A stretch of 64,000 nt of DNA from Escherichia phage vB_Ec-M-J. Shown here one piece after another: positions 1 through 21,565 of the stretch; position 1 is the first letter of the stretch; each line of letters begins with the position of its first letter. The translations under genes and the position numbers were made by a program. Where the stretch lies: the sequence record OQ718158.1, one strand, 5' to 3'. The notes beneath the pieces are model-generated. The model was not told the origin of the DNA and made no database searches. It was given only the letters and a program-made list of their open reading frames with translations.

Positions 1-70
1 AGTAGGCAGAGGAAGTCTGCCGTACTTTGTAGTTTCCAAGCTCCTTTTCCATTTTGCAAATTACATCAAA

Positions 71-98
71 TGTAATCAAAAGTAATCAAAAGTAATCA
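71..98. repeat. tandem ~10-bp direct repeat (A)AGTAATCA(A) x3
   Basis: tgtaatcaaa/agtaatcaaa/agtaatcacg read directly. Confidence 0.6.
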
Positions 99-375
99 CG
101 CAATGATTAGTACTGAATTATTACTTTCACCTTAATTTCAATTACCCCTTTACCCTTCGGGGTAAAATTCCATTACCCCTTGAGGCTCCAGCAAAAAGTT
201 GGTTAGTACTCCATCCTAAATCTCGATCCTAAAAATTTTGGAGTACCTATGAAATAAAAGTTGGATCTTCGAAATTTGAAATTTACGTTGGGACGTTTAT
301 GATTTGTGGGATATAATGATGTTTGTAGTCGGGTAGTTTTCAAGAATATCAGCACTGAATAATGAAAGAAAGCTA

Positions 376-403
376 TTGACATTATGATTCAGTACTGTAT
401 AAT
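376..403 (+). promoter_or_regulatory. sigma70-like promoter in left non-coding region
   Basis: TTGACA-16-TATAAT followed by GTTCTACATAGGG (same downstream box as early promoters). Confidence 0.5.
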
Positions 404-731
404 GTTCTACATAGGGTGATGAGTTGCTGCGAACAATTCATTTACTCTACCTCCTGTCGTGAGACAGTACAGAAAAGATAGTTCCTCCTGTGGTGGTACA
501 TCTTTTTGAACCTCATATGAAAATCGTAATAACAGTACTGATATTAACAGAATGGTGTCAGTACTGATTTTAATCTAAAGCATTATGCCACCAGCACAAG
601 CTGGTGGATTCCCTCTAACAGTATTCAGTACTACATGATGGTCTTCATCCTCCTAGGGTAACATAGTGAGGGCTATGATGGCAGTACTGAATACTCCCTT
701 TCAAAAGATAGATCTATGGTATAGTACTGAC

Positions 732-920
732 GGATTTTGGGCGTAGTTACCCTGGATGGATTTTGGACGTAGATATGTCTAGCCCTCCAGAAGTCTGGAA
801 GTAAAGATGGCTATCCATCTAGACGGCTAAACGGCTAGATTTCTGGATGGCTAGATGGCTAGACGTTTGGACGGCTAAACGGCTAGATGGTTACACGTCT
901 GGAAGTATAGACGGCTAAAT
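732..920. repeat. iteron-like cluster of short direct repeats
   Basis: GGATTTTGG(G/A)CGTAG x2; GTCTGGAAGTA x2; ACGGCTAAACGGCTAGAT x2; GGCTAGATGGCTAGACG. Confidence 0.6.
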
Positions 921-1355
921 CAAAATTTTATTTTGTTTTTCCAATAGTTCCCCTACCGCGTGGGGATAGTTTCCCCGCAGTATCTGGAGTTAGATTTTTC
1001 TGAATCTGGAATCATTATCTTATAAACTGGGGGCAATGTCAACGACCTGGACGGATATTTTTAAAAATTTTTTCAGTACTGAATTTTGGGCGTAACTATG
1101 CACCCGGTGGGCTTGAGTCTTTCTCGACTTGATGGAACTATTATACAGTACTGAAAAAATAAAGCAATACCCTGGAAGCAAAAAAGTTTTAATTAATTTG
1201 CTTGCTATCCTGGGCCGGACTATGGTACTATATTTCAGTACTGAGAAAGTGCGTTTACCTGCTAGGGTGCGGGAGTGTATCCTTTTTTTATATCTTGAAT
1301 TTTGGGCGTAATTCCGCACCCTCTGGGGTTTCCGCTTTCTCGCGTCTATGTAGTA

Positions 1356-1383
1356 ATTATACGCTTTTTCAGGATCAAGTCAA
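1356..1383 (-). promoter_or_regulatory. candidate leftward promoter
   Basis: minus strand TTGACT-16-TATAAT; transcribes toward a GCACCC..GGG box. Confidence 0.35.
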
Positions 1384-1676
1384 TACCTAAAAACAAAATA
1401 ATTGAAAATAATTTAACGCGTTTAAACGGCCCGTAAAGCCCTGGAATGATTGGAATGGTGCAAATGTATAGCTTAGGTGTATTAATGCGTTAGAATGCGT
1501 CTGAGGCCGTTTTACGGGGTATAGGGATGATTTGGTGGATTGATTCAGTACTGAATGATAGTACTACTATATAGAAAGATAGTTCCCCTGGATGGTTGCA
1601 GTACTGAATGATAGTACTGAATAATAGTTCCCCTATATAGAAAGAAAACTATTTTAAAAGTATTTGTAGAAAGTAC

Positions 1677-1734
1677 TTGCAAACTAAGTTTAACGGCGTA
1701 TAATGTTTTACATCGAGAGCGGGAACACTTCCCG
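1677..1734 (+). promoter_or_regulatory. early promoter + 5' stem-loop
   Basis: AAAGTACTTGCAA-16-TATAAT-GTTTTACATC then hairpin GCGGGAAcacTTCCCGC. Confidence 0.65.
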
Positions 1735-1759
1735 CTACATATTACGAGAGATTAAAACG

Positions 1760-2122
1760 ATGGCGACTCAAATCACTAAAATTATTGCTAACCTGGTTAA
1801 CTTTCGCGACGAGATGAAAGATCTTCCGGCAGAAACGGTAAAAATTCACATTTCAGCTTATCGGGAACTTATTGCAATGTTACCGCTTAAGCGTGAACAA
1901 TACGCCGCGACCGTGATGCTTGATGCGATGATCCATAAGATGATCGCCAGTGATTTAACGATGGTTTATCAGTATATGGGCGAAAATTTCGCGGTGTATA
2001 GTAAACCAGTACCAGGAATGGAAAGTACAGAAGTATTACACGGTTTAAATTTAAAACAAGATGCATGGGATAATATGCCTCGTTTCCTGGTATGGGCTGA
2101 CAGTGGCAAGATTTACGAATAA
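1760..2122 (+). CDS. hypothetical early protein (120 aa)
   Basis: ORF in track frame; start moved to ATG after RBS GAGAG; track start 1703 lies in promoter -10. Confidence 0.65.
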   Translation: MATQITKIIANLVNFRDEMKDLPAETVKIHISAYRELIAMLPLKREQYAATVMLDAMIHKMIASDLTMVYQYMGENFAVYSKPVPGMESTEVLHGLNLKQDAWDNMPRFLVWADSGKIYE

Positions 2123-2136
2123 GTTTTAAAAAGTAC

Positions 2137-2196
2137 TTGCAAACTAAGTTTAAAAGCGTATAATGTTTTACATCAGGTGGGGAATAGTTCCCCACT
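2137..2196 (+). promoter_or_regulatory. early promoter + 5' stem-loop
   Basis: TTGCAA-16-TATAAT-GTTTTACATC; hairpin GTGGGGAAtagTTCCCCAC. Confidence 0.65.
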
Positions 2197-2216
2197 ATAA
2201 TTAAGAGATTAATTTC

Positions 2217-2450
2217 ATGAGTACTATTTTAACTGTTTCTCAATCCGTTGCACTGACTGACCTATTAAACGCTTTAAGCCGTTGCACTGAGGTTGGCTTG
2301 TTTGATGTGGTAGACGTTGCACCGGACGTTATTAATCATTTTTGTGATGCGATGGAAGAATGTAAGGAAGATGATAGCCGTATGATGGCGGTCGCCTTTG
2401 AGGAAGTACAACCAGGTGAGATCAAAGGTTTACCAGTACTGAAAAAATAG
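2217..2450 (+). CDS. hypothetical early protein (77 aa)
   Basis: track ORF; own promoter and RBS. Confidence 0.65.
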   Translation: MSTILTVSQSVALTDLLNALSRCTEVGLFDVVDVAPDVINHFCDAMEECKEDDSRMMAVAFEEVQPGEIKGLPVLKK

Positions 2451-2453
2451 TAC

Positions 2454-2512
2454 TTGCAAACTAAGTTTAAAAGCGTATAATACTTTCTATCAGGTGGGGA
2501 ATAGTTCCCCAC
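2454..2512 (+). promoter_or_regulatory. early promoter + 5' stem-loop
   Basis: TTGCAA-16-TATAAT; hairpin GGTGGGGAAtagTTCCCCACT. Confidence 0.65.
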
Positions 2513-2532
2513 TATATAAGAGGATTTAAAAA

Positions 2533-2772
2533 ATGGCTAAATCAAAAATGTTCTTAGGTCACAAAAACAAAACTCATTGGAATGTAAGCCTTTGGATTAA
2601 TAACGATGAGTCATTGTACCGGTTGGCCCAGGACTTTATTAACGATAGCACTAATCGCAATGATGCGGCCCGTCATATGATGTTATTTTTAGAACAGACT
2701 GGACAAGATAAAACACCGGACGGATTCAAATATAGCACTACTGCGATCCGTGCGGCGATGGTTGGAATGTAA
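2533..2772 (+). CDS. hypothetical early protein; paralog of 4636..4875
   Basis: track ORF; shares HKNKTHWNVSLWINN...TPDGFKYSTTAIRAAMVGM with 4636 gene. Confidence 0.7.
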   Translation: MAKSKMFLGHKNKTHWNVSLWINNDESLYRLAQDFINDSTNRNDAARHMMLFLEQTGQDKTPDGFKYSTTAIRAAMVGM

Positions 2773-2798
2773 TAGAATAGAATTTATTTAAAGTACTA

Positions 2799-2823
2799 TT
2801 GCACGGGGATAGTACTTTATAAT
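2799..2823 (+). promoter_or_regulatory. degenerate promoter (short spacer)
   Basis: TTGCAC-13-TATAAT; the homologous element at 15302 has an intact 17-bp spacer. Confidence 0.3.
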
Positions 2824-2860
2824 AGTGTTTTATTCATACACCAACGATAAGGGCAACAGC

Positions 2861-3127
2861 ATGAATATTAAGTATTTTGCGACGCGTGAACAAGCTCGGA
2901 TCGCCGCACGGCAGGACGGGGCAACGTTTAAAGATATGGGCGTACAATCGGAACGTGGTAAACGTTGGGCCATTGTAAAGCGTAGTACCGCCAGATCATT
3001 ACAGTACTGGTTAGCGGCCTTAAAAAGTCCCGATAGTGTATCGCGTCGAGTGGTAGAAATAAAGCTCGACCGAAAGGGCAACCGCGTGACTGTGTACCGT
3101 ACTAAAAAGATTGCAGTACTTGAATAA
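2861..3127 (+). CDS. hypothetical early protein; paralog of 15375..15770
   Basis: start moved to ATG after RBS AAGGG; shares KYFATREQARIAAR...RKGNRVTVY with 15375 gene. Confidence 0.6.
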   Translation: MNIKYFATREQARIAARQDGATFKDMGVQSERGKRWAIVKRSTARSLQYWLAALKSPDSVSRRVVEIKLDRKGNRVTVYRTKKIAVLE

Positions 3128-3134
3128 AAAGTAC

Positions 3135-3193
3135 TTGCAAACTATGTTTAATGGCGTATAATGTTTTACATCGAGAGCGGGAACACTTCCCGC
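3135..3193 (+). promoter_or_regulatory. early promoter + 5' stem-loop
   Basis: TTGCAA-16-TATAAT-GTTTTACATC; hairpin GCGGGAAcacTTCCCGC. Confidence 0.65.
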
Positions 3194-3214
3194 CTATAAC
3201 CTGGAGTAATAAAA

Positions 3215-3445
3215 ATGACTAATATGTATATGACTGAAGTTAAAACCGTAAAAGATACTACCACGAATAAAACTACTTACTTACAGCGGATCTGCGGTGT
3301 ATGGCAACGTATCAGCAAATCAAAGTACTTTAAATTAACATCATATGCAAACCGTTCGGATTCATTCAGTACTGAAATAAAAGGTAATAAAGTACACCAA
3401 TACGGCACTTATTATTATTATAGCCTGGACGCGATTGCAGTCTAA
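3215..3445 (+). CDS. hypothetical early protein (76 aa)
   Basis: track ORF; promoter + RBS GGAG. Confidence 0.6.
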   Translation: MTNMYMTEVKTVKDTTTNKTTYLQRICGVWQRISKSKYFKLTSYANRSDSFSTEIKGNKVHQYGTYYYYSLDAIAV

Positions 3446-3475
3446 GCAGTTTACAAATCTTTACAATTGCCGGTA

Positions 3476-3504
3476 TTGACTTATTTTGTCAGTACTGGCA
3501 TAAT
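3476..3504 (+). promoter_or_regulatory. sigma70-like promoter upstream of conserved box
   Basis: TTGACT-17-CATAAT. Confidence 0.5.
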
Positions 3505-3536
3505 GTATTCATTGGCAGATAAGCCGTAGCCCATAG

Positions 3537-3565
3537 GGTGCGGGAGTGTATCTATAGAAAAATTA
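3537..3565 (+). promoter_or_regulatory. conserved ~29-bp box (TAGCCCAyAGGGTGC..GTGTATCTAT)
   Basis: one of about 10 copies in the window, always 25-50 bp downstream of a promoter. Confidence 0.5.
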
Positions 3566-3567
3566 GT

Positions 3568-3600
3568 TTAGTACAGTTACAATTGTGCACCCGGTGGGTT
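3568..3600 (-). promoter_or_regulatory. inverted copy of conserved box
   Basis: reverse complement of GTGCACCCGGTGGGTTAGC matches the box. Confidence 0.45.
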
Positions 3601-3619
3601 AGCTGTTGTCATGGGGTAT

Positions 3620-3648
3620 ATTATGCCAGTACTTGATAATGCTGTCAA
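3620..3648 (-). promoter_or_regulatory. leftward promoter convergent with 3476 promoter
   Basis: minus strand TTGACA-17-CATAAT. Confidence 0.45.
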
Positions 3649-3693
3649 TACTTTTTTAATATTCAGTACTGAAAACTATTTTTAAAAAGTACT

Positions 3694-3720
3694 TGCAAAC
3701 TATGTTTAAAGGCGTATAAT
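3694..3720 (+). promoter_or_regulatory. early promoter (no immediate hairpin; long leader)
   Basis: TTGCAA-15-TATAAT-GTTTTACATC. Confidence 0.6.
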
Positions 3721-3810
3721 GTTTTACATCAGGACGGGGAACGAAATAAGTAACTTCCCGTTAAGTAGCCCAGGAGTAAGGCACACGAAAAACTCCCCTG
3801 ATAAAATAGT
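3721..3810 (+). promoter_or_regulatory. structured ~90-nt leader, duplicated at 14175..14262
   Basis: CAGGACGGGGAACGAAA.AAGTAAC..CCCGTTAAGTAG.CCAGGAGTAAG...AAAAACTCCCCTGATAAAATAG nearly identical in both copies. Confidence 0.5.
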
Positions 3811-3838
3811 TTGACAATTGTTTTTAAAAGCGTATAAT
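3811..3838 (+). promoter_or_regulatory. second (tandem) promoter before 3871 gene
   Basis: TTGACA-16-TATAAT. Confidence 0.5.
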
Positions 3839-3870
3839 ACTTACATCAACTACTGAATGAGGGTTACAAA

Positions 3871-4545
3871 ATGAAAACTATCACTACTACTACTTTCGTT
3901 ATGGATTTTTCTGAATTGAATGAGGGTTGCAAAGCGAAAACTGTCACTAATACTACTTTCGTTATGGATTTTTCTGAATTGAACGCAGAACAAAAAACGT
4001 CAGCTATCGAACTGGTTCGGGAACGTGAAAAAAACTTAAACGATGATTATTTTTCTGAAAGTGAAATTGAATACTATAAAGAAACAGTACTACCGGAATA
4101 TGGCATTAATGACGCTGAAATACAATTCAGTGGTTTTTGGTCCCAGGGTGACGGTGCATCAATCAGTACTGACCACGTTGACGCAGTGAAGTTTTTACGC
4201 AAGGTAAGAGCATTAACTAAATATCGCTCAATCCGTCACTTGCTGAATGAAGATGATTTGGCGATGAGTGTAAAGCGTTCTCACTCCCACTACTCGCATG
4301 AGAATACTGTAAGCGGGTACATTGAATCGGCTTACACTGATTTAACCGCAAAACAAGAAACGTTAGTTAATGAGCTTGAGGAACTACTCACTGAAACTAT
4401 TCGTGAATTATCCCGCAAGTTGTACCGTGATTTAGAGAATGCATATGAGGATCAATTCACTACTGAAAACATTACGGCACTGATTGAGGGTAACGAATAT
4501 CAATTCAATGTTATTAATGGCGTAGTAGAATCAATCGAATATTAA
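3871..4545 (+). CDS. hypothetical protein (224 aa) with N-terminal tandem duplication
   Basis: track ORF; TTTFVMDFSELN(E/A) repeated twice near N-terminus. Confidence 0.7.
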   Translation: MKTITTTTFVMDFSELNEGCKAKTVTNTTFVMDFSELNAEQKTSAIELVREREKNLNDDYFSESEIEYYKETVLPEYGINDAEIQFSGFWSQGDGASISTDHVDAVKFLRKVRALTKYRSIRHLLNEDDLAMSVKRSHSHYSHENTVSGYIESAYTDLTAKQETLVNELEELLTETIRELSRKLYRDLENAYEDQFTTENITALIEGNEYQFNVINGVVESIEY

Positions 4546-4557
4546 TTTAAAAAGTAC

Positions 4558-4619
4558 TTGCAAACTAAGTTTAAAGGCGTATAATACTTTATATCGAGGC
4601 GGGGAGTGGTTCCCCGCTC
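4558..4619 (+). promoter_or_regulatory. early promoter + 5' stem-loop
   Basis: TTGCAA-16-TATAAT; hairpin GAGGCGGGGAgtggTTCCCCGCTC. Confidence 0.65.
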
Positions 4620-4635
4620 AAACGAGGATTAAAAA

Positions 4636-4875
4636 ATGGCTAGTACTAAAACTTACAACGGGCACAAAAACAAAACTCATTGGAATGTTTCCTTATGGAT
4701 TAATAACGGTGAGTCATTGTATCGGCTTGCTCAAAGTTGCATCGCACAAAGTAGAACTAAAGATATTGCTGCGGAATGTATGTACCGCAGATTAAAAGCC
4801 AACGGTACTACTACAACGCCGGACGGATTCAAGTATAGCACTACGGCGATCCGTGCTGCAATGGTTGGAATGTAA
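4636..4875 (+). CDS. hypothetical early protein; paralog of 2533..2772
   Basis: track ORF; conserved N- and C-terminal blocks with 2533 gene. Confidence 0.7.
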   Translation: MASTKTYNGHKNKTHWNVSLWINNGESLYRLAQSCIAQSRTKDIAAECMYRRLKANGTTTTPDGFKYSTTAIRAAMVGM

Positions 4876-4895
4876 TATTCAGTACTGTAACAATG

Positions 4896-4920
4896 GCGGG
4901 GAATGGTTCCCGCCTTTATT
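4896..4920 (+). terminator. hairpin + T-rich tail (terminator or 5' stabiliser)
   Basis: GGCGGGGAAtggTTCCCGCC then TTTATT. Confidence 0.45.
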
Positions 4921-4933
4921 GAGGGTTTATCTA

Positions 4934-5194
4934 ATGAGTAAAGTAATTAGCTATACAGTACTAAGCAAGTCATTATCTATTAGCCAGTGCACCGATGGTT
5001 ATTGGCTATTTGATGAAACGCGTGGAATGAATTTAGCTATGCGTGCAAAAACTGCTGAGGCGGCGTATCTTGAGGCACTGGAATACTACCAGGAACGTTT
5101 AACGGAAGTAGAAGAAGATTATAAAAGCCTCAAAGCGAAAGTAGATCATTTCGTCGGTCAATTCATCGAGGAAGACGACGACAAACAATATTGA
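4934..5194 (+). CDS. hypothetical early protein (86 aa)
   Basis: start moved to ATG after RBS GAGGG; track start 4853 runs through the hairpin. Confidence 0.55.
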   Translation: MSKVISYTVLSKSLSISQCTDGYWLFDETRGMNLAMRAKTAEAAYLEALEYYQERLTEVEEDYKSLKAKVDHFVGQFIEEDDDKQY

Positions 5195-5203
5195 AAAAGT
5201 ACT

Positions 5204-5261
5204 TGCAATTAGTTTTAAGTACTGTATAATGGTTTACATCAAAGGGAGAAATGGTTCTCCC
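5204..5261 (+). promoter_or_regulatory. early promoter + 5' stem-loop
   Basis: TTGCAA-15-TATAAT; hairpin GGGAGAAatggTTCTCCC. Confidence 0.65.
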
Positions 5262-5280
5262 TGGTAATGAGGAAAATAAA

Positions 5281-5502
5281 ATGGCTAATATCACTACTCT
5301 TTCCCAACTGGAAGCACTGGTTAAATCTATGCGGGAACATGCCGACAAAATCGGCGTACAAGATCCAGCCGTTTGCTTCTGCGACGAATTGAATGATGAT
5401 ACCCTGGTAATAGCAGAAGTCCAGGACGTTTCTAACTATTCCTCGCGTTACACTGGCGGCGTAGCAAATAAAGGTGACTTCTGTTTATACCTTACAAAAT
5501 AA
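5281..5502 (+). CDS. hypothetical early protein (73 aa)
   Basis: start moved to ATG after RBS GAGG; track start 5251 lies in hairpin. Confidence 0.6.
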   Translation: MANITTLSQLEALVKSMREHADKIGVQDPAVCFCDELNDDTLVIAEVQDVSNYSSRYTGGVANKGDFCLYLTK

Positions 5503-5505
5503 CAA

Positions 5506-5537
5506 CGCGGGGAGATAATAACTCCCCGTTACTTTTT
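5506..5537 (+). terminator. rho-independent terminator candidate
   Basis: CGGGGAGataataaCTCCCCG then TTACTTTTT. Confidence 0.5.
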
Positions 5538-5608
5538 CAGTACTGAATCATTTAATAGACGGATCTCGGCACCCGGTGGGTTAGTGACTGTTTCGTCTTG
5601 ATGTAGTA

Positions 5609-5637
5609 ATTATGCCAGTACTGGATGCACTTGTCAA
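5609..5637 (-). promoter_or_regulatory. leftward promoter reading into inverted box copy
   Basis: minus strand TTGACA-17-CATAAT; GCACCCGGTGGGTTAG downstream. Confidence 0.4.
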
Positions 5638-8076: not shown

Positions 8077-8094
8077 AATATTATCACAGTACTA

Positions 8095-8123
8095 TTGACA
8101 TAGTTTGATAGTACTGGCATAAT
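8095..8123 (+). promoter_or_regulatory. class-B early promoter
   Basis: ATTATCACAGTACTATTGACA-17-CATAAT; same cassette at 8389, 11231, 11502, 19423. Confidence 0.6.
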
Positions 8124-9889: not shown

Positions 9890-9949
9890 TTGCAATTAGT
9901 TTTTAGTACTGTATAATGTTTTACATGAAGGGGAGAAATGATTCTCCCC
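9890..9949 (+). promoter_or_regulatory. early promoter + 5' stem-loop
   Basis: TTGCAA-16-TATAAT; hairpin GGGGAGAAatgaTTCTCCCC. Confidence 0.6.
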
Positions 9950-10350: not shown

Positions 10351-10440
10351 AAAAAGTGGTTGACTCCGGTCAGCCATTTTGCTATTATATATTCATTGAG
10401 AGATAGCTCACTAGCCCACAGGGTGCATAAGTGTATCTAT
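10351..10440 (+). promoter_or_regulatory. composite element: terminator-like hairpin overlapping promoter, then conserved box
   Basis: AAAAAGTGGTTGACtccgGTCAGCC; TTGACT-17-TATTAT; TAGCCCACAGGGTGCATAAGTGTATCTAT. Confidence 0.55.
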
Positions 10441-10916: not shown

Positions 10917-10976
10917 TTGACAATAGATTATAGTACTGTATAATTAATTACATCAAGGGGAGAAAAACTTCTCCCC
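10917..10976 (+). promoter_or_regulatory. early promoter + 5' stem-loop
   Basis: TTGACA-16-TATAAT; hairpin GGGGAGAAaaacTTCTCCCC. Confidence 0.65.
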
Positions 10977-12348: not shown

Positions 12349-12606
12349 ATGGCTGTTGGATTCGCGAAGGACGGGGCCGAGCAAGACGAGATTAACGCAG
12401 TTATTCAGGCCGCTGTAAACCACGCTAGAACGCAAATTAACGCACAAATAGAATCACTGATACATTGCCTCGACTGTGGCGATAAAATCCCTGAGAATCG
12501 CCGCCAGGTCGTTAAGGGGTGTAAGTACTGTATCACTTGCCAGGAGGATCATGATAGTACTTTTAAACGTCAACCGCGTAATTGTTGGCATAGATCTATG
12601 AGATAA
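12349..12606 (+). CDS. TraR/DksA-family C4 zinc-finger protein
   Basis: C-x2-C-x15-C-x2-C-x2-C (HCLDCGDKIPENRRQVVKGCKYCITCQ), typical of TraR/DksA zinc fingers. Confidence 0.7.
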   Translation: MAVGFAKDGAEQDEINAVIQAAVNHARTQINAQIESLIHCLDCGDKIPENRRQVVKGCKYCITCQEDHDSTFKRQPRNCWHRSMR

Positions 12607-12612: not shown

Positions 12613-12640
12613 TTGACAGTACTATCCAGTAGTGTATAAT
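12613..12640 (+). promoter_or_regulatory. early promoter
   Basis: TTGACA-16-TATAAT-GTTTTATATC. Confidence 0.55.
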
Positions 12641-13028: not shown

Positions 13029-13089
13029 CTTGCATTTAGTTTTCAGTACTGTATAATAGTTTACATGAAGGGGAGAATAGTTCTCCCCA
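13029..13089 (+). promoter_or_regulatory. early promoter + 5' stem-loop
   Basis: TTGCAT-17-TATAAT; hairpin GGGGAGAAtagTTCTCCCC. Confidence 0.6.
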
Positions 13090-14005: not shown

Positions 14006-14092
14006 TTGAAAAAGGGATTGACTCCGGTCAGTCCCTTTGCTATTATATACGCATAGAAACAAATTAGCCCACCGGGTGCATAAATGTATCTA
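14006..14092 (+). promoter_or_regulatory. composite element: hairpin/promoter + conserved box
   Basis: AAAAAGGGATTGACtccgGTCAGTCCC; TTGACT-17-TATTAT; TAGCCCACCGGGTGCATAAATGTATCTAT. Confidence 0.55.
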
Positions 14093-14602: not shown

Positions 14603-14662
14603 TTGACAAAGTATCTTAGTACTGTATAATAGTTTACATCGAGAGGGGAAACGGTTCCCCTC
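14603..14662 (+). promoter_or_regulatory. early promoter + 5' stem-loop
   Basis: TTGACA-16-TATAAT; hairpin GAGGGGAAacggTTCCCCTC. Confidence 0.65.
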
Positions 14663-15826: not shown

Positions 15827-15831
15827 ACAAC

Positions 15832-16086
15832 ATGATTAAGGTTCAACTATCAAACGATAATGTATTACGGGTACACTATAAAGCACCTCAGAGAATCATC
15901 ACAAAGGCCGTACAGCTTGCTAATGAGTTTATTAATGGTAACCTATTACCTAGGAAGTTAAGCAACGGGAAACTGCGTGTAATCGACGTGGACACTAACA
16001 ACAGGATAGTAATCGAGAACACAGGAAAGATAAACCTTTATGAGCATCAACAATACAATAAGAAAATAAAACTAATATCACGTTGA
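15832..16086 (+). CDS. hypothetical protein (84 aa)
   Basis: track ORF; RBS AGGA. Confidence 0.55.
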   Translation: MIKVQLSNDNVLRVHYKAPQRIITKAVQLANEFINGNLLPRKLSNGKLRVIDVDTNNRIVIENTGKINLYEHQQYNKKIKLISR

Positions 16087-16112
16087 CAGTACTCAATTGT
16101 TTTAGTACTATG
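16084..16112 (+). promoter_or_regulatory. promoter (leader duplicated at 16359)
   Basis: TTGACA-17-TACTAT; GTACTCAA.TGTTTTAGTACTAT conserved in both copies. Confidence 0.45.
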
Positions 16113-16139
16113 TACACATACCAACACGGGAGAAACAAA

Positions 16140-16358
16140 ATGAAATTATCTAAAATCGAAAAGAAAACTATTGATGAAGCAGTTAAGCACGGTTATACCT
16201 TTCGTAATGATTCACATTTTACCAATTTTCAACAAGGGTATCGTACTATTAAAAAACTAATTGACAAAGGTTTATTAGTTGAAGTCAATAACGGTAACGG
16301 TATCGAGTATCAACCAACACAGGACGCATTTTATTTTAAGAAATATAATATTATCTAA
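16140..16358 (+). CDS. hypothetical protein (72 aa)
   Basis: start moved to ATG after RBS GGGAGAAA; track start 16083 is the TTG of the -35. Confidence 0.6.
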   Translation: MKLSKIEKKTIDEAVKHGYTFRNDSHFTNFQQGYRTIKKLIDKGLLVEVNNGNGIEYQPTQDAFYFKKYNII

Positions 16359-16387
16359 TTGACAGTACTCAAATGTTTTAGTACTAT
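16359..16387 (+). promoter_or_regulatory. promoter, duplicate of 16084
   Basis: TTGACA-17-TACTAT. Confidence 0.45.
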
Positions 16388-16415
16388 ATGTACATACCAA
16401 CACGGGGGAAACAAA

Positions 16416-16658
16416 ATGATTACTTTAGAAAAACGTATCAAAGAAACTACATCGCTGGTGGAACTGTTAACAGTACTCAAATGTAAAACAACACCATTCA
16501 GCACGCCGGACTTTATTAATATGGTTGATGTTAATGGTCGCTATCGTATCACGGTCGAACAAGGAGCGGCGAAAGTATTCAGTACTAAAAACACTAAGGA
16601 AGTGATCCACGCCGTTAATGTTAAAAAAGTAGTTGCCATTGATAGTAAAGTACTGTAA
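16416..16658 (+). CDS. hypothetical protein (80 aa)
   Basis: start moved to ATG after RBS GGGGGAAA. Confidence 0.6.
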   Translation: MITLEKRIKETTSLVELLTVLKCKTTPFSTPDFINMVDVNGRYRITVEQGAAKVFSTKNTKEVIHAVNVKKVVAIDSKVL

Positions 16659-16689
16659 TATAGTTTCATTAACTCAAGGAGAACATGCA

Positions 16690-17274
16690 ATGCGTAATTA
16701 TACTAAATTCATCCGTACACTGTCAGAAATGGAAACCAACAAAGAGATCCTTTCAGCTTGTCGGTTAGCTGGACTGGAGATCATCGGTGCTGGTTCTTCC
16801 CGTATAGTATTCGCTTTAAATGATCGGTTAGTGATTAAGGTCGCGAATTGTGATGCGGGTGTAGAACAAAATGAAACTGAATGTAAGGTATGGAATTTTT
16901 TAGACTATGACCGCCCTCAGTTGAAACAGTACTTTGCAAAGGTGCATATGCATTTATGCGATCCTGATAATATGTTTATCGTTATGGATCGGTTGAGTAC
17001 TGCAAGTAAAGGCAGTGTGAAGCACGTTAACGCGTGCAATGAATTAAAGTACAATATTAAACGTAATGCAATTGAACGCCAGCACCGCTTTGCTGATGCA
17101 CTACAACACGTCGATGATACATTATCAACACTAACGATAAGAGATATCAGAAAACAGAATATCGGCCAGGATCGTAATGGCCTTATTAAAGTACTTGATT
17201 ACGGTTTAACCTGCAATATCTGGAATCAGTACTATAAAAAGCGTGATGTGGCAGCAAGTAAGGTAACACGATAA
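16690..17274 (+). CDS. putative protein kinase-like protein (Hanks-type motifs)
   Basis: IIGAGSSRIV (G-x-G loop), VIKVA (Lys), IRDIRKQN (catalytic loop), VLDYGL (DFG-like) in canonical order and spacing; RBS AAGGAG. Confidence 0.5.
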   Translation: MRNYTKFIRTLSEMETNKEILSACRLAGLEIIGAGSSRIVFALNDRLVIKVANCDAGVEQNETECKVWNFLDYDRPQLKQYFAKVHMHLCDPDNMFIVMDRLSTASKGSVKHVNACNELKYNIKRNAIERQHRFADALQHVDDTLSTLTIRDIRKQNIGQDRNGLIKVLDYGLTCNIWNQYYKKRDVAASKVTR

Positions 17275-17280
17275 AAAAGA

Positions 17281-17370
17281 TTAAAAAAGGGATTGACTCC
17301 GGTCAGTCCCTTTGCTATTATATATTCATTGAGAGATAACTCACTGACCCATAGGGTGCGGAAGTGTATC
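17281..17370 (+). promoter_or_regulatory. composite element: hairpin/promoter + conserved box
   Basis: AAAAAAGGGATTGACtccgGTCAGTCCC; TTGACT-17-TATTAT; TGACCCATAGGGTGCGGAAGTGTATCTAT. Confidence 0.55.
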
Positions 17371-17416
17371 TATTATATAAGTATTCAGTACTGAAAACTA
17401 TTTTAAAAAAAAGTAC

Positions 17417-17476
17417 TTGCATTGTACTTAGAATCAAGTATAATGTTTTATATCGAGAGGGGGAAATGGTTCTCCC
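17417..17476 (+). promoter_or_regulatory. early promoter + 5' stem-loop
   Basis: TTGCAT-16-TATAAT; hairpin GGGGGAAatggTTCTCCC. Confidence 0.6.
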
Positions 17477-17498
17477 TGGTATATTAAGGAATAAAATC

Positions 17499-17720
17499 AT
17501 GACTACAATGACTTGCATTTACGCTTCCAATCTTCTGAATGATGCGGCCTTTAATGTTGATTCAGAATATCAATGTTATCGGGATGAAAATAAAAAAGTT
17601 TTTGTAGTTGATAATAATGGTTTCCATATTGAATTACAATCCGGCTTCACTGGCGTTGATGGTAAATCAGTATGGGGCGTACAGGATGATAAAGGTACAT
17701 ATCATTTTAAACGTAATTAA
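17499..17720 (+). CDS. hypothetical early protein (73 aa)
   Basis: start moved to ATG after RBS AAGGAATAA. Confidence 0.6.
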   Translation: MTTMTCIYASNLLNDAAFNVDSEYQCYRDENKKVFVVDNNGFHIELQSGFTGVDGKSVWGVQDDKGTYHFKRN

Positions 17721-17723
17721 GTA

Positions 17724-17782
17724 TTGACAAAGTATCTTAGTACTGTATAATAGTTTACATCAAGGGGAGAATAGTTCTCCCC
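17724..17782 (+). promoter_or_regulatory. early promoter + 5' stem-loop
   Basis: TTGACA-16-TATAAT; hairpin GGGGAGAAtagTTCTCCCC. Confidence 0.65.
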
Positions 17783-17803
17783 GATACTAAAAGGAATAAA
17801 ATC

Positions 17804-18211
17804 ATGACTACTACTAATCAAGCTCGGTCCATCGCCAACGATAAAAATCATGCTGAAATGGTCGCTGGTTACATTGAAGCTATGCAATTCAGTACTGTAC
17901 ACAATGAGAACGGCGAATACCTGGAAGATTATGAATTATCAGAGCAAGCCCATCAAGCGGCAGTGATTGCATGTTCACGTTTCCTTGCTGTACATGGTGA
18001 AGATATGGAAACAGTACAAAAACACCATAATCCTGATTATACTTATAGTCATGCGGGTCATGATCTCTTTCTTACTCGCGAAGGTCACGGCACTGGTTTT
18101 TGGGATCGTGATATCGGTCACTATGATGATATATTCACTAAGTACTGCGAAGAAATCAACGTTTGCGATCCCTATGTAGGCGATGATAATCTAATCTATA
18201 TGGGCGAATAA
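17804..18211 (+). CDS. hypothetical early protein, His-rich (135 aa)
   Basis: track ORF; RBS AAGGAATAA. Confidence 0.65.
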   Translation: MTTTNQARSIANDKNHAEMVAGYIEAMQFSTVHNENGEYLEDYELSEQAHQAAVIACSRFLAVHGEDMETVQKHHNPDYTYSHAGHDLFLTREGHGTGFWDRDIGHYDDIFTKYCEEINVCDPYVGDDNLIYMGE

Positions 18212-18217
18212 AAGTAT

Positions 18218-18276
18218 TTGACAAAGTATATCAGTACTGTATAATAGTTTACATCAAGGGGAGAATAGTTCTCCCC
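18218..18276 (+). promoter_or_regulatory. early promoter + 5' stem-loop
   Basis: TTGACA-16-TATAAT; hairpin GGGGAGAAtagTTCTCCCC. Confidence 0.65.
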
Positions 18277-18298
18277 ACCAATAAAAGGAAACAAAATT

Positions 18299-18571
18299 AT
18301 GTCCAGCTACTCCGCTACTATGATCATTAAAGATATGAACGGTAATCCTACTTCTGCTGGTGGATCATTTGGAAACATTAATTTAGATGGTCGGTTATCC
18401 ATGCAATCAGCCATCGATGCAGCGAAAGAAGTTTTTAAGAATGAATGTACTGTAAGTAAGCTGGATTATATGGGATTCGCTATCGAAAAAACTAATCGTT
18501 TTGTGAACTACAAAAATCCACTGATGATCGATACTAACCTGAAAGCAAACGAAGTGGGGTACTTATTATGA
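18299..18571 (+). CDS. hypothetical early protein (90 aa)
   Basis: track ORF; RBS AAGGAAAC. Confidence 0.65.
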   Translation: MSSYSATMIIKDMNGNPTSAGGSFGNINLDGRLSMQSAIDAAKEVFKNECTVSKLDYMGFAIEKTNRFVNYKNPLMIDTNLKANEVGYLL

Positions 18572-18759
18572 CAGTAGAAGAAGTTAAAAAAGTACTGGCA
18601 GTACTACGCTATCATAATCATTGCAAGGTGAAGAATGATCCTGATTATCTCGATTCATCCCTGGAAGAGGATACACTACAAGCAATAAGCCATATGCAAA
18701 AAATGCTTAAGCGTATGACCGAAAAGAATAGGCCGGACTATATCGGAAATAAAATTTAA
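18568..18759 (+). CDS. hypothetical protein (63 aa)
   Basis: track ORF; ATGA overlap with upstream gene. Confidence 0.55.
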   Translation: MTVEEVKKVLAVLRYHNHCKVKNDPDYLDSSLEEDTLQAISHMQKMLKRMTEKNRPDYIGNKI

Positions 18760-18766
18760 AAAGTAC

Positions 18767-18826
18767 TTGCATTGTAGTTAGATTAACGTATAATGTTTTA
18801 TATCGAGAGGGGGAAATGGTTTCCCC
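18767..18826 (+). promoter_or_regulatory. early promoter + 5' stem-loop
   Basis: TTGCAT-16-TATAAT; hairpin GAGGGGGAAatggTTTCCCCTC. Confidence 0.6.
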
Positions 18827-18846
18827 TCAAGTCCAGGAGATACACC

Positions 18847-19110
18847 ATGAACACTATCGAAATCACTATCAATGCACACGTATACGACAACGTAGTACTG
18901 CAAACTACTATGACCGCTAATGATACCAGTACTTTGCGGAATACTGTTATTAGTGCCGTATGTGCTGCAATCGGTGATGTCGCCCTGGAAAATGCAGAAC
19001 ACATCAACAACGGTTTCACTATGTGCAAACGTGATAACGCAAAACATATCATCGTAGAAGGTTACGGCGGTGTAGAATTTAATGTTTATATGAAAAAAGT
19101 ACTTGCATAA
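18847..19110 (+). CDS. hypothetical early protein (87 aa)
   Basis: start moved to ATG after RBS CAGGAGA. Confidence 0.6.
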   Translation: MNTIEITINAHVYDNVVLQTTMTANDTSTLRNTVISAVCAAIGDVALENAEHINNGFTMCKRDNAKHIIVEGYGGVEFNVYMKKVLA

Positions 19111-19159
19111 TAACTAAAACAAAGTATAATGTTTTGCATAGGGGGAGATATCCTCCCCC
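19104..19159 (+). promoter_or_regulatory. early promoter + 5' stem-loop
   Basis: TTGCAT-15-TATAAT; hairpin GGGGGAGAtatcCTCCCCC. Confidence 0.6.
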
Positions 19160-19177
19160 ACTAAAAGGAGTAATAAA

Positions 19178-19402
19178 ATGGCTAACTTTGATGAACTGAT
19201 GCGGGAAGTAGCTAACCTGGCAGAAGAGAAGAAATCATTCGATTCTATCTATAACACCGCTCACCGTGATTCAGTACTGGCATGTAACCAGGATCAAAAA
19301 GATGAACTAATCGCCACCTATCATGAAGCATGGAAGTACTACCGACAATGGGAGAAAGAAGAAAGTGAGTCTACCATCGAAGGTATCAATAATCTAATCT
19401 AA
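19178..19402 (+). CDS. hypothetical early protein (74 aa)
   Basis: track ORF; RBS AAGGAG. Confidence 0.65.
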   Translation: MANFDELMREVANLAEEKKSFDSIYNTAHRDSVLACNQDQKDELIATYHEAWKYYRQWEKEESESTIEGINNLI

Positions 19403-19422
19403 AAGTTTTATTTCAGTACTAT

Positions 19423-19450
19423 TGACATAGCTTGATAGTACTGATGTAAT
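19423..19450 (+). promoter_or_regulatory. class-B early promoter
   Basis: TTGACA-16-TGTAAT. Confidence 0.5.
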
Positions 19451-19478
19451 AACTTTACTAACTACAAGGGGAAACATA

Positions 19479-19736
19479 ATGGATCAATTCACACAATATC
19501 GGGTAAATCCTCAATCTATGGCCTACGTAGAAGACCATAAAACGTTACCAGTACTGCAACCAGTTAAAGGCCGTATCTATCGTGGCCTTGCCTGGGATAC
19601 GGCCCAGGATGGATATAAAACCGTCGCCGTGGGGATGTATTGCGGGAATGGTGAATGGTTTGATCCTAACAATCCGATTGCACTTGACAGTACTGAAAAA
19701 ATGAAATGGGCCGACTACATCGAAGATATTTCATAA
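19479..19736 (+). CDS. hypothetical early protein (85 aa)
   Basis: track ORF; RBS AAGGGGAAA. Confidence 0.6.
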   Translation: MDQFTQYRVNPQSMAYVEDHKTLPVLQPVKGRIYRGLAWDTAQDGYKTVAVGMYCGNGEWFDPNNPIALDSTEKMKWADYIEDIS

Positions 19737-19743
19737 AAACTAT

Positions 19744-19806
19744 TTGACAGTACTAACCAGTAATGTATAATGTTTTACATAGAGCGGGGGAATAGTTCTC
19801 CCGCCA
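19744..19806 (+). promoter_or_regulatory. early promoter + 5' stem-loop
   Basis: TTGACA-16-TATAAT-GTTTTACAT; hairpin GAGCGGGGGAAtagTTCTCCCGCC. Confidence 0.6.
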
Positions 19807-19826
19807 ATAGTTTGGAGTTAAACATT

Positions 19827-20027
19827 ATGTCTATCGCTATCGCCCTGGTTGAAGTACTGAAAGAAGCTAAAGCCAACCTTATCGATGTACAGATTAAGGA
19901 ATTGCAAAACGGCTTAATCGGCTGTACTTGTACCGCTGGTGGAGCGGCAGACTATCGAGAACACGAATCACTCGAATCACTGGTTCGGTATCTTACCATG
20001 ATCGTTGATGATTGGAGAATCATCTAA
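19827..20027 (+). CDS. hypothetical early protein (66 aa)
   Basis: start moved to ATG after RBS GGAG. Confidence 0.6.
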   Translation: MSIAIALVEVLKEAKANLIDVQIKELQNGLIGCTCTAGGAADYREHESLESLVRYLTMIVDDWRII

Positions 20028-20036
20028 CAAAAAAGA

Positions 20037-20126
20037 ATAAAAAAGGGATTGACTCCGGTCAGTCCCTTTGCTATTATATACGCATAGACAAAAACTAGCC
20101 CACAGGGTGCATAAGTGTATCCAAAA
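20037..20126 (+). promoter_or_regulatory. composite element: hairpin/promoter + conserved box
   Basis: AAAAAAGGGATTGACtccgGTCAGTCCC; TTGACT-17-TATTAT; TAGCCCACAGGGTGCATAAGTGTATCC. Confidence 0.55.
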
Positions 20127-20189
20127 TATATAGTTAATAACGGTGAGTAACTATCTGCTGGTGGAGTGAAAACTATTAATAAAAAAGTA

Positions 20190-20218
20190 TTGACAAAGTA
20201 TATCAGTACTGCAATAAT
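20190..20218 (+). promoter_or_regulatory. sigma70-like promoter
   Basis: TTGACA-16-CAATAAT. Confidence 0.45.
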
Positions 20219-20271
20219 GTATCTCGTAGGGCGGCAATGGTGCGACGGCCCACAAAGTTAGGAGCTTCAAA

Positions 20272-20604
20272 ATGACTACTTCAATCGCTATCGTTAAAGC
20301 TTTCATCCGTACTAATGTTTCCTCTGTATTCATCGACGGCCTCGACCGTAACGTAGAATACTCAATCATTATCGCACAAACGGCAAACGGTTCTCGGTAC
20401 ATCCTGAATGATAGTGAAGCAAATCACTACTACTTCACTAAAGCCACTGGCTTTAAACGCATCGATGCTGATGTAGTATACGCTAAGATGAATAAGCTGG
20501 TAGATAAGATTAACGCTAAAGGTACTATAGATTTACAGTACTGGACCGAAACCGATCCAGAATATGGATCTCACCGCTACCTGAATCCAGGTATTAAAAT
20601 GTAA
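20272..20604 (+). CDS. hypothetical protein (110 aa)
   Basis: track ORF; RBS TTAGGAG. Confidence 0.65.
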   Translation: MTTSIAIVKAFIRTNVSSVFIDGLDRNVEYSIIIAQTANGSRYILNDSEANHYYFTKATGFKRIDADVVYAKMNKLVDKINAKGTIDLQYWTETDPEYGSHRYLNPGIKM

Positions 20605-20611
20605 AAAGTAC

Positions 20612-20672
20612 TTGCATAGTACTTAGATTCATGTATAATGTTTTACATAGAGAGGGGGAAATGGTTCTCCCT
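20612..20672 (+). promoter_or_regulatory. early promoter + 5' stem-loop
   Basis: TTGCAT-16-TATAAT-GTTTTACAT; hairpin GAGGGGGAAatggTTCTCCCTC. Confidence 0.6.
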
Positions 20673-20693
20673 CCTAAATTAAGGAGTTTTATC

Positions 20694-21095
20694 ATGACCT
20701 TCTCAATCACTTCCTTCGCTGACGTTTTAGTACTGGCTCGGACTTTTGGTAAAGATGCACTGGAGTACGCTGTAAGTAATGGCACTATCCAACCGGAACA
20801 GTGCCGCATCATTGGAAACTGCAAACGTTGGGCGGTATCCAATACTATTGCACTGGAAAACTTCAACGATGGCAACAATGAATATTCTGTTGATGCAGTA
20901 TTCGAAGCCGTAGACCTGGGCGGTATCTATAACACTAACCTGAATGATGTGCGTATCGTTCGCACGGGGTTCGGTGCTTATGATGTATCTATCCGTGAAG
21001 CTATGGACAATGGATACATTAGCAAGGACTTACTTGCTCACATCATGCAGCTATGGACGGAACGTAACGAAGCACGCACTATCTTAGGGCTGTAA
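20694..21095 (+). CDS. hypothetical protein (133 aa)
   Basis: start moved to ATG after RBS AAGGAG. Confidence 0.65.
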   Translation: MTFSITSFADVLVLARTFGKDALEYAVSNGTIQPEQCRIIGNCKRWAVSNTIALENFNDGNNEYSVDAVFEAVDLGGIYNTNLNDVRIVRTGFGAYDVSIREAMDNGYISKDLLAHIMQLWTERNEARTILGL

Positions 21096-21120
21096 GCGTT
21101 ACACATCACTAAACATCATA

Positions 21121-21140
21121 GGCCGCTCTCTAGCGGCCTT
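21121..21140 (+). terminator. GC hairpin (weak terminator candidate)
   Basis: GGCCGCTctctAGCGGCC, no clean T-run. Confidence 0.3.
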
Positions 21141-21163
21141 AACTATATCAGGAGGGCATACAT

Positions 21164-21373
21164 ATGTTCTATACAGTATATAGCGTTATAGGCACTATTG
21201 CAGGCGTACATGATAACGTCGATAGTGCTATGCGTACAGTACTGCAACAGGTTCCACTTAAGCCTAAGACCATTAAGCAGATGACAGCACGACTAACCAG
21301 GGCGACGGCTGGCGTGGAAGTATGGCAGGACTATGGGGATACACAGATAATCGTAAGCGTAACGAAGGATTAA
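21164..21373 (+). CDS. hypothetical protein (69 aa); last gene before composition shift
   Basis: track ORF; strong RBS AGGAGG. Confidence 0.6.
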   Translation: MFYTVYSVIGTIAGVHDNVDSAMRTVLQQVPLKPKTIKQMTARLTRATAGVEVWQDYGDTQIIVSVTKD

Positions 21374-21565
21374 TGCGTAAAAGGATTTAGTACTGAATCA
21401 TAAAAAAGTCAAGGTATTTTTAAACTTCAGCGTTAAAAAAATGCATAGGTAATCCCTTGACTTTTATGAATAAAAAGGGATTGGACTATGGCAAAATGCG
21501 TAGGGGGCTAAAGGGCGGGTAACCTTTAGCGACTTCGATAAAGGGGTATTACTAATAAAATGTTA

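Follow-up and report, generated by a model that had tools for sequence, protein, structure and literature searches.

Background

Among the systems closest to the one described here are the uptake signal sequences (USS) of the Pasteurellaceae and the DNA uptake sequences (DUS) of Neisseria, exact short words that occur genome-wide at a density of at least about 1/kb, lie within genes in all frames, entail a bias in the encoded peptides, are selected for number over position and serve to distinguish self DNA. They are asymmetric 9-12-mers of competent bacteria, and the uptake machinery is their reader. The present work deals with the hexamer AGTACT in a stretch of 64,000 nucleotides from Escherichia phage vB_Ec-M-J (sequence record OQ718158.1; this whole stretch is called the window in what follows) and in the genomes of other phages. 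As in the case of USS and DUS, AGTACT is in excess genome-wide, in all frames as well as in non-coding DNA, and its density is kept through the turnover of sites; unlike them, it is a palindrome of 6-8 bp found in phages, whose hosts are not naturally competent.

Over-represented oligomers of coding and non-coding DNA are also known to mark DNA for translocating machines, such as Chi (GCTGGTGG, read by RecBCD) and the FtsK-orienting polar sequences (KOPS). These are asymmetric, oriented with respect to replication and enriched a few-fold, whereas AGTACT is palindromic and 9-15-fold in excess; being symmetric it shows no polarity, which was found only for AGTACA(G) in one block without AGTACT (block II, described below). 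The arrays of SlmA (GTGAGTACTCAC), Noc and MatP resemble the one studied here in their dispersed sites, in a dimeric reader (a putative one in the phage) and in their enterobacterial hosts, and the SlmA site has AGTACT as its core. The flanks of the SlmA site are avoided in the phage, however, and the host carries about 50 sites in 4.6 Mb as against about 900 in 0.35 Mb of phage DNA.

Certain phage proteins recognise phage DNA and turn off the transcription of early or host genes; examples are TF1 of SPO1, whose DNA contains hydroxymethyluracil (hmU), and Alc of T4, whose DNA contains hydroxymethylcytosine (hmC). An analogy may be drawn with the phage studied here, whose long terminal repeat is filled with small early genes that each have a strong promoter of their own, and where self and host could be distinguished at early promoters. 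Self-recognition in SPO1 and T4 rests on a modified base, unlike in Asteriusvirus, the group to which the window is assigned below. Asteriusvirus DNA was cut normally by ten restriction enzymes (fEgEco12, PMC13070987), so that a sequence word would replace the modified base.

AGTACT is a restriction target of the ScaI/Eco255I type, and other palindromes of this kind are extremely avoided in these genomes. Unlike what restriction-site avoidance produces, it is strongly enriched in them, whereas a phi92-like coliphage is depleted of it as expected (2 vs 45). Finally, in early promoters AGTACT lies at the proximal UP subsite and at the extended -10 position, and there it resembles the UP element and the extended -10 TGn: in AGTACTGGCATAAT it provides the TG of the extended -10, and in AGTACTGTATAAT the TG stands one base off the canonical register. 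Unlike the accessory elements of sigma70 promoters, most copies are not located near any promoter. We found no description of an enrichment of AGTACT or CAGTACTG in the papers on RaK2, CBB, Sharanji and fEgEco12, nor by full-text searching, which covered part of the subscription journals, and an earlier description may exist. In its statistics AGTACT is nearest to uptake sequences and to Chi, as an exact word dispersed through genes whose density is selected. The AGTACT array is real, strongly selected, and unexplained by the known systems with which it was compared.

Size and extent of the enrichment

An earlier note on this DNA had described AGTACT as enriched in the promoters and intergenic regions of positions 1-21400. 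The enrichment is real and far larger than had been claimed. Dinucleotide-preserving shuffles of the 64 kb gave 16.6 +/- 4.1 copies (maximum 27), and 258 are found; AGTACT is the highest-ranking hexamer of the window (z = 58), with an observed-to-expected (O/E) ratio of 14.9, and no other palindrome exceeds 2.4-fold enrichment. CAGTACTG is found 57 times against 0.55 expected. Positions 1-21400 contain 142 copies of AGTACT, with 6.4 expected, and the forms that had been quoted, AGTACTGTATAAT, AGTACTGGCATAAT and TCAGTACTGA, are all present. The ratio stays far from 1 after correction for composition and codons, as set out below.

The first 8 kb of the window match about 160 phage records, the top match being Escherichia phage ECO103 4-12-1 (96.5% identity), followed by PBECO4, 121Q-type phages, G17, Sharanji and other members of Asteriusvirus. 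These matches identify the window as the left end of the genome of an Asteriusvirus, a jumbo myovirus of the PBECO4/121Q/G17 type of about 350 kb; the + strand carries all of its substantial open reading frames (ORFs). Phages of this kind carry a direct terminal repeat (DTR) of about 21 kb. That of fEgEco12 has been described as 20,993 bp long (PMC13070987), and its right terminus, which was verified by experiment, can be aligned to the window as far as about 21,525. The early block of the earlier note is therefore the DTR, and the unique region comes next. The DTR (1-21525; blocks are given without a strand unless one is named) is the densest AGTACT block, with 142 sites and a density of 6.6/kb overall, 11.4/kb in intergenic and 4.1/kb in coding DNA, the intergenic density being 2.8 times the coding one. 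At least one AGTACT is present in 40 of its 46 intergenic gaps and at least two in 21, in agreement with the claim that most intergenic regions of the early block bear the word, and the 84 intergenic sites represent 49 distinct contexts (6.9/kb) once duplicated cassettes are merged. The left non-coding region (1-1702), for which abundance had also been claimed, holds 16 sites in 1.7 kb, many of them in the form TCAGTACTGA.

Both the limit at 21400 and the restriction to intergenic DNA proved too narrow, the enrichment of 1-21400 itself being confirmed. Besides the coding sites of the DTR, the tightly packed coding block at 37331-64000 has 102 copies (3.8/kb), 92 of them inside ORFs and in three frames, and the short block at 26696-28770 shows the usual enrichment (14 vs 1.0 expected). 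ORF interiors hold 162 of the 258 sites of the window in their entirety, in all three frames, and 919 copies were counted genome-wide in the closest relative. All 58 coding contexts of the DTR are distinct. Synonymous-codon shuffling within blocks, which preserves the codon usage of each block, already inflated itself, gave 11.1 for DTR coding DNA against 58 observed, and 20.9 for 37.3-64 kb against 91. An origin in codon usage, composition or repeats is excluded by the two kinds of shuffle, by the dipeptide data given below and by the distinct coding contexts. The single-mismatch neighbours of AGTACT have O/E ratios of 1.2-2.1, except AGGACT/AGTCCT at 0.59; since no neighbour is depleted like a precursor, an origin by biased repair of the very-short-patch type is ruled out.

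Genome-wide distribution and effects on proteins

For genome-wide counts the closest complete relative, OR844650.1 (352 kb), was assembled in full. It contains the 919 copies just mentioned against about 100 expected (about 10x; O/E 9.1), and all of its full 5 kb bins exceed expectation, including those of structural genes. In the 240 kb of the genome body AGTACT has the same density in coding and in intergenic DNA (2.1/kb), is evenly distributed along genes and occurs in three frames, and outside the early region no peak was found upstream of genes. The gaps between sites in the body are slightly more regular than random (coefficient of variation, CV, 0.86; maximum 2.1 kb). The distance spectrum, in which helical phasing was sought, showed the 3-nt codon period only and no period of 10-11 bp, and a cooperative array of phased operators was accordingly rejected. 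A 50 kb sample of E. coli K-12 contains three copies (about 0.06/kb), so that the density in phage DNA is 40-100 times that of the host sample.

The word leaves its trace in the proteins. Among 478 Ser-Thr dipeptides 259 are encoded by AGT-ACT, where 77.5 would be expected, and both Ser-Thr and Val-Leu are in excess over the reversed orders and over the amino-acid expectation. The bias in dipeptides and codon pairs therefore indicates that AGTACT is selected as DNA, and that this selection is strong enough to alter the encoded proteins. At the same time, at least ten hexamer palindromes are wholly absent from OR844650.1, each expected 16-30 times (AGCGCT, CGTACG, CTCGAG, GCTAGC, TCCGGA, GAGCTC, AGGCCT, GTCGAC, GGATCC and TGCGCA). 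The premise that phages usually deplete palindromes of the restriction type is thus borne out: this genome is under strong pressure to avoid restriction, and AGTACT is the exception.

Selection on the sites and the extended word

In the comparison with ECO103 4-12-1 the mismatch rate is 0.042 inside AGTACT sites and 0.088 in their flanks, and 87% of the sites are intact where the flank rate predicts 57%; the corresponding values for G17 are 0.015 and 0.055. Conservation effects were far smaller for control hexamers. Over a longer distance, 38 kb of orthologous coding DNA from Klebsiella phage RaK2 and the coliphage were aligned (63% amino-acid identity). Their densities are 2.3 and 1.9 sites/kb, and only 15 columns are common to the 89 and 73 sites. 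Equal density with few common columns means that selection keeps the number of sites while individual sites turn over. The enrichment of AGTACT is independent of coding, codon, repeat and composition effects, and the sites are under purifying selection.

The preferences extend beyond the hexamer to 5'-(T)TnC-AGTACT-GnA(A)-3'. In the window the base at -1 is C in 111 of 258 sites and G in 14, and at +6 it is G in 120 and C in 10; among phage sites C precedes the core in 46% and G in 8%, the 3' side mirrors this, and T is preferred at -3 and -4. The symmetry of both core and flanks argues for recognition on duplex DNA by a reader that is itself two-fold symmetric.

AGTACT in other phages

The excess is shared by jumbo phages of other hosts. 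RaK2 has 119 copies in 50 kb where 12 are expected, and GAP32 (Cronobacter) and CBB (Pectobacterium) have 53 and 57 per 25 kb where about 6 are expected. The Pseudomonas relative PA5oct has a single copy against 7.7 expected, and the 146 kb record of a phi92-like coliphage has 2 against 44.9, with GTAC at expectation. The latter record, MG065645.1, is a Justusliebigvirus (phi92-like coliphage type), though labelled Campylobacter phage A145.

When IMG/VR was scanned for pairs of CAGTACTG within 35 bp, many contigs were returned in which AGTACT is enriched 10-25-fold. One recurrent group, of about 33 kb and 42-43% GC, corresponds to a lambda-like siphovirus, with a lambda-family portal, a gpA terminase and a tail-tip J protein; it occurs as a prophage of Leclercia and has a relative in Yersinia pekkanenii. 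The Leclercia prophages have 102 and 107 copies per 21.5 kb and that of Yersinia 42, with one promoter-like match only in the lambdoid prophage. In the structural genes of RaK2, GAP32, CBB and the lambdoid prophage AGTACT is equally enriched. The flank rules (C preferred at -1, where G is excluded, and T preferred at -3/-4) hold for the prophages of Leclercia and Yersinia and for three other groups of contigs, and other palindromes are purged from all of these too. The trait is patchy and occurs in at least two unrelated lineages, which have one recognition specificity in common. All lineages with an identified host infect Enterobacterales.

DCP80 (PQ671644.1), a distant cultured relative of two of the contig groups, was considered as a cultured AGTACT-rich relative and rejected, being unenriched and its record looking chimeric. 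Its first 26 kb or so form a structural module of siphovirus type (gpA-type terminase, capsid, J-like tail protein), and the remainder carries T4-like genes (motA, ndd, and rIIA, which is duplicated in both orientations).

A protein shared by the carriers of the word was sought by blastp and phmmer between the jumbo phage proteome and the ORFs of 29 AGTACT-rich loci plus the Leclercia prophage, the prophage sample covering 21.5 kb of the 33 kb and overlapping IMG/VR pieces. Only a GH24 lysozyme was common, and a shared phage gene as the reader is not supported within the sampled DNA. Pfam searches on 40 prophage proteins gave structural proteins and a SegE-type GIY-YIG endonuclease, with no DNA-binding or methylating family; nothing in the jumbo phage corresponds to this endonuclease of the small phages. 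A motif scan of the jumbo genome for methyltransferases returned two candidates only, a C5 enzyme ('PCQ') and a small Dam-type protein ('NPPY'). A phage protein like SlmA gave no match with phmmer, a weak test as the E. coli SlmA query was approximate.

The lysozymes of the small AGTACT-rich siphoviruses are 47-48% identical to that of the jumbo phage. In OR844650.1 the lysozyme is encoded as a free protein of 162 aa (140653-141141) and, in the adjacent gene, as the C-terminal domain of a protein of 887 aa (137953-140616). The common lysozyme indicates a shared gene pool.

Early promoters of the terminal repeat

On the + strand of the DTR there are 46 strong promoters of the sigma70 type, and in 33 of them AGTACT is found in a fixed register. 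Relative to the -35 the sites have offsets of -5 (19 cases) or -7 (4 cases), and relative to the -10 at -7 (13 cases) or -8 (6 cases). In the promoters of class A, exemplified by that at 4553-4585 (+ strand; AGTAC-TTGCAA-N16-TATAAT, with AGTACT at 4553-4558), the last T of AGTACT is the first T of the -35, a register found 19 times. Class B has two sites, as at 8088-8123 (+ strand; AGTACT-A-TTGACA-N9-AGTACTGG-CATAAT), where one AGTACT lies just 5' of the -35 and the second gives the extended -10 its TG; the upstream register, AGTACT-A-TTGACA, has four cases in the DTR and the downstream one, AGTACTGG followed by CATAAT, has six. In class C, as at 14603-14630 (+ strand; TTGACA-N9-AGTACTG-TATAAT), the site adjoins the -10, and the register AGTACTG-TATAAT occurs 13 times. 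A variant in which the last A of the -35 is common to AGTACT (TTGAC-AGTACT) is found at 12613-12640 (+ strand) and further at 16083, 16359 and 19744. The same registers recur in 11 of 16 promoter-like sites of the early-type regions of RaK2 and in 12 of 16 and 18 of 25 in two other jumbo contigs.

It is plausible therefore that AGTACT has a conserved local role at early promoters. The functional role that the earlier note had suggested, that of a regulator site or promoter element, holds insofar as the sites are under selection and occupy fixed distances in early promoters; confinement to promoters or to intergenic DNA was not found, as body densities are the same in both kinds of DNA. Any role at promoters or in regulation must be limited to local use of a feature that extends over the whole genome, because coding and intergenic densities of the body are equal, all frames are used, codon pairs are bent toward the word and the structural genes of an unrelated lambdoid prophage are enriched.

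Both AGTACT sites of MG065645.1 lie in its 45-50 kb bin, and so does a stretch of about 80 bp (47299-47378) with about 82% identity to the class A promoter cassette of the jumbo phages. This likeness could result from an exchange of promoter cassettes between phage groups.

Blocks without AGTACT

Just past the DTR are the two longest AGTACT-free stretches of the genome, of 5.0-5.3 kb and 8.3-8.6 kb, the next longest being 2.1 kb. The shorter one, block III (21526-26695), comprises the first genes of the unique region, with about 20 small, tightly overlapping and apparently paralogous ORFs of 66-91 aa. Its top 7-mer is CTGTACT, that is, AGTACAG on the minus strand, found 7 times against 0.2 expected and in part at paralogous positions, and it uses GCT-GTA-CTG (Ala-Val-Leu) where GCA would give AGTACT. 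The longer one, block II (28771-37330, + strand; 8.6 kb), is nearly devoid of GTACT as well. In block II AGTACA is present 48 times where 4.0 are expected, always on the sense strand, in every frame and also between genes; the top 7-mer is AGTACAG (19 vs 0.8 expected), and TGTACT is wholly absent. G at -1 of AGTACA is not excluded, in contrast to AGTACT, and these sites are moderately conserved with respect to the closest relative (73% vs 39% expected). Elsewhere AGTACA is weakly tied to gene orientation, with 211 sense and 144 antisense copies.

The genes of both blocks are specific to Asteriusvirus by tblastn, and in Pfam and PHROGs they matched nothing but families without a known function. 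The blocks may have been acquired recently from genomes that avoid palindromes; other possibilities are a need to evade the putative reader, or a signal of their own that is strand-specific. The switch of strand between blocks III and II was also considered as a replication origin or primase signal. The sites of block III are few and some are paralogous, and this possibility was retained only as part of the enzymatic alternative considered below; it is weakened as well by the fact that AGTACA elsewhere tracks gene orientation and not position.

A putative reader and the alternative explanations

The reading that we prefer, which may well be correct but which we hold to fall short of probable, is that AGTACT forms a dense, genome-wide array of sites for a putative two-fold-symmetric reader of duplex DNA, serving as a mark of phage DNA and acting like an operator at early promoters. 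Its starting points, namely the enrichment, the selection on it, the symmetry, the dependence on density and the convergence of the extended word, are shown. A two-fold-symmetric reader is proposed because core and flanks are symmetric and because function is tied to the number of sites and not to their exact position. The reader would be a dimeric sequence-specific DNA-binding protein or enzyme acting on duplex DNA, and the array, whose density is kept near 2/kb over the body and at 6.6/kb in the DTR, would be a sequence-based mark or loading platform that distinguishes phage from host DNA. The terminal repeat enters first and bears the early genes; sites there overlap the -35 or adjoin the -10 of most early promoters, and occupancy of these promoters would also modulate early transcription, in the simplest case by turning it off as the reader accumulates. 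Binding, the identity of the reader and its consequence are what we infer. Since no phage protein but the lysozyme was common in the sampled DNA and the trait is absent from the Pseudomonas relative, the reader would be either an enterobacterial host factor or a small, fast-evolving phage protein. A bolder version, possible but somewhat more doubtful, holds that unrelated phages of Enterobacterales, virulent jumbo myoviruses and temperate lambdoid siphoviruses, have convergently loaded their genomes with TnC-AGTACT-GnA, that a cellular or viral reader senses its density to distinguish phage from host DNA and that the word is a self-mark which replaces base modification. If this were true, the self-mark could serve in protection from nucleases or silencers, in genome organisation or in the timing of early promoters.

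Several points weigh against the proposed reader. No candidate for it was found. K-12 is well studied, and to our knowledge only SlmA has such a specificity there, with flank requirements that the phage sites do not satisfy. The phi92-like coliphage, which infects the same host species, purges AGTACT, and therefore any benefit provided by the host is not general. A small shared phage gene could have been missed, as pairwise searches overlook fast-evolving proteins, and shared descent of duplicated cassettes could explain part of the conservation of promoter registers. Moreover, a symmetric dimer does not explain the strand-specific AGTACA(G) of block II, and the total absence of the palindrome from blocks II and III is unaccounted for by any reading considered.

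It can also be the case, although we regard it as unlikely, that AGTACT is the target of an enzyme of DNA transactions. Palindromes of 6-8 bp whose flank rules are symmetric typify type II-like enzymes. Candidate reactions are methylation by a methyltransferase of phage or host, as an epigenetic self-mark or timing device, and site-specific nicking or cleavage that would seed recombination-dependent replication or the formation of concatemers between terminal repeats. The high density in the DTR, where recombination between the repeats is needed, and the slight regularity of spacing (CV 0.86, no gap above 2.1 kb outside blocks II and III) are in line with it, but with 900 sites, cutting or nicking on both strands would break the genome up. 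Priming from 5'-AGTAC is a further form; for a primase or nickase the palindrome would put a site on both strands, and strand-specific reading would account for AGTAC on the + strand only in block II and for its complement in block III. Known primases read trinucleotides, however, and outside block II AGTACA is only weakly gene-oriented (211 vs 144), while some sites of block III are paralogous. Methyltransferases are encoded in these genomes (PMC11895373; PMC3622015), but the motif scan gave only the 'PCQ' and 'NPPY' candidates, and neither a methyltransferase nor a shared nuclease was found in the sampled prophage DNA. Methylation in RaK2 was attributed to sites of the Dam/Dcm/CpG type (PMC3622015), unlike which AGTACT contains no CpG and is not GATC. 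More improbable is that a promoter element or operator of an early regulator is the whole explanation, the abundance coming from many early promoters. The fixed registers in 33 of 46 DTR promoters, their conservation in RaK2 and other jumbo contigs, the 40 of 46 gaps with a site and the 2.8-fold intergenic density of the DTR are what such an element would give. The location of 162 of 258 sites inside ORFs, the equal densities in the body, even along genes, the bending of Ser-Thr and Val-Leu codon pairs toward the site, the equally enriched structural genes of RaK2, GAP32, CBB and the lambdoid prophage, and the lack of a peak upstream of genes outside the early region are not.

Recruitment or titration of SlmA, whose site (GTGAGTACTCAC) has AGTACT as its core, so that replicating phage DNA would activate SlmA and block division, is very improbable. 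The SlmA consensus does include AGTACT (PMC3020112), Sharanji, a close relative, causes filamentation and fills the cell with its DNA (PMC11895373), and the trait is found in phages of Enterobacterales and not in the Pseudomonas relative. The SlmA half-site is G1-T2-R3-A4-G5-Y6, within a 12-bp palindrome, and requires G1, T2, a purine at 3, A4 and G5 (PMC3020112), whereas position 3 in the phage is C in 46% and G in 8%; full sites (GTRAGTACTYAC or GTRAGYRCTYAC) number zero in the window and in the 352 kb, GTR half-flanks are under-represented (10 and 9 against 23.6 expected), and the flank pattern of all AGTACT-rich lineages is of this anti-SlmA kind. Identity with the SlmA binding site was thus rejected for the absence of the required flanks. 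Finally, it can hardly be believed that there is no selection on the word, and that composition, codon usage, amplification of cassettes or paralogues, or biased repair of the very-short-patch type produced it. Promoter cassettes are indeed duplicated (84 sites, 49 contexts), and the codons AGT, ACT and GTA are frequent in a genome as AT-rich as this one, but shuffles give 16.6 (dinucleotide) and 11 and 21 (synonymous) against 258, 58 and 91, all coding contexts are distinct, no neighbour is depleted as repair predicts, substitution is slower within the sites than in the flanks, convergence on one extended word is seen in unrelated lineages, and a phage of the same host and of similar GC has 2 sites against 45 expected.

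Other features of the terminal repeat

A 34-nt inverted repeat lies in the left non-coding region at 533-566. Both arms have the sequence CAGTACTG, and with 14 pairs and a T-rich tract after it the repeat is terminator-like by a consensus scan. In the same region, at about 780-960, there is a cluster of short, degenerate tandem repeats (GGCTAGAT, GGACGGCTAAAC, TCTGGA…) that look like iterons and could be related to packaging, to an origin or to the terminus.

Most DTR promoters have a conserved G/C-rich stem-loop (GGGGAGAAnnnnTTCTCCCC or similar) within about 10 nt 3' of the -10, for example at 9925-9944, 10951-10970, 13065-13084, 17759-17778 and 18253-18272. It is situated at the extreme 5' end of the predicted transcripts and could be a hairpin that stabilises the mRNA or directs its processing. 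A different hairpin, AAAGGGATTGACTCCGGTCAGTCCCTTT, with a stem of 12 bp and followed by GCTATTAT, is present in four copies (10353-10388, 14011-14046, 17286-17321 and about 20042-20077); it contains a -35-like TTGACT within the stem and has a -10-like TATTAT just 3', with a conserved sequence downstream (…agcccacagggtgc…). These copies could be terminator-promoter units or a family of small RNA genes. The small protein encoded at 12349-12606, annotated in relatives as a C4-type, DksA/TraR-like zinc finger, is a candidate modulator of host RNA polymerase.

Implications

A genome that purges palindromes keeps one of them at 9-15 times expectation despite the distortion of codon pairs and dipeptides. 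The same word, with the same flank rules, in unrelated phages of a single host order implies a strong, unrecognised sequence-specific interaction in well-studied hosts. The reader, once found, could reveal a new way of telling unmodified phage DNA from host DNA; it could be a new regulator that shuts off the early genes of jumbo phages, or a new host factor that phages exploit or evade. AGTACT is in addition a simple computational marker of this biology in metagenomes. For these phages, which are therapeutic candidates, restriction of the ScaI type is predicted to be devastating unless the sites are protected.

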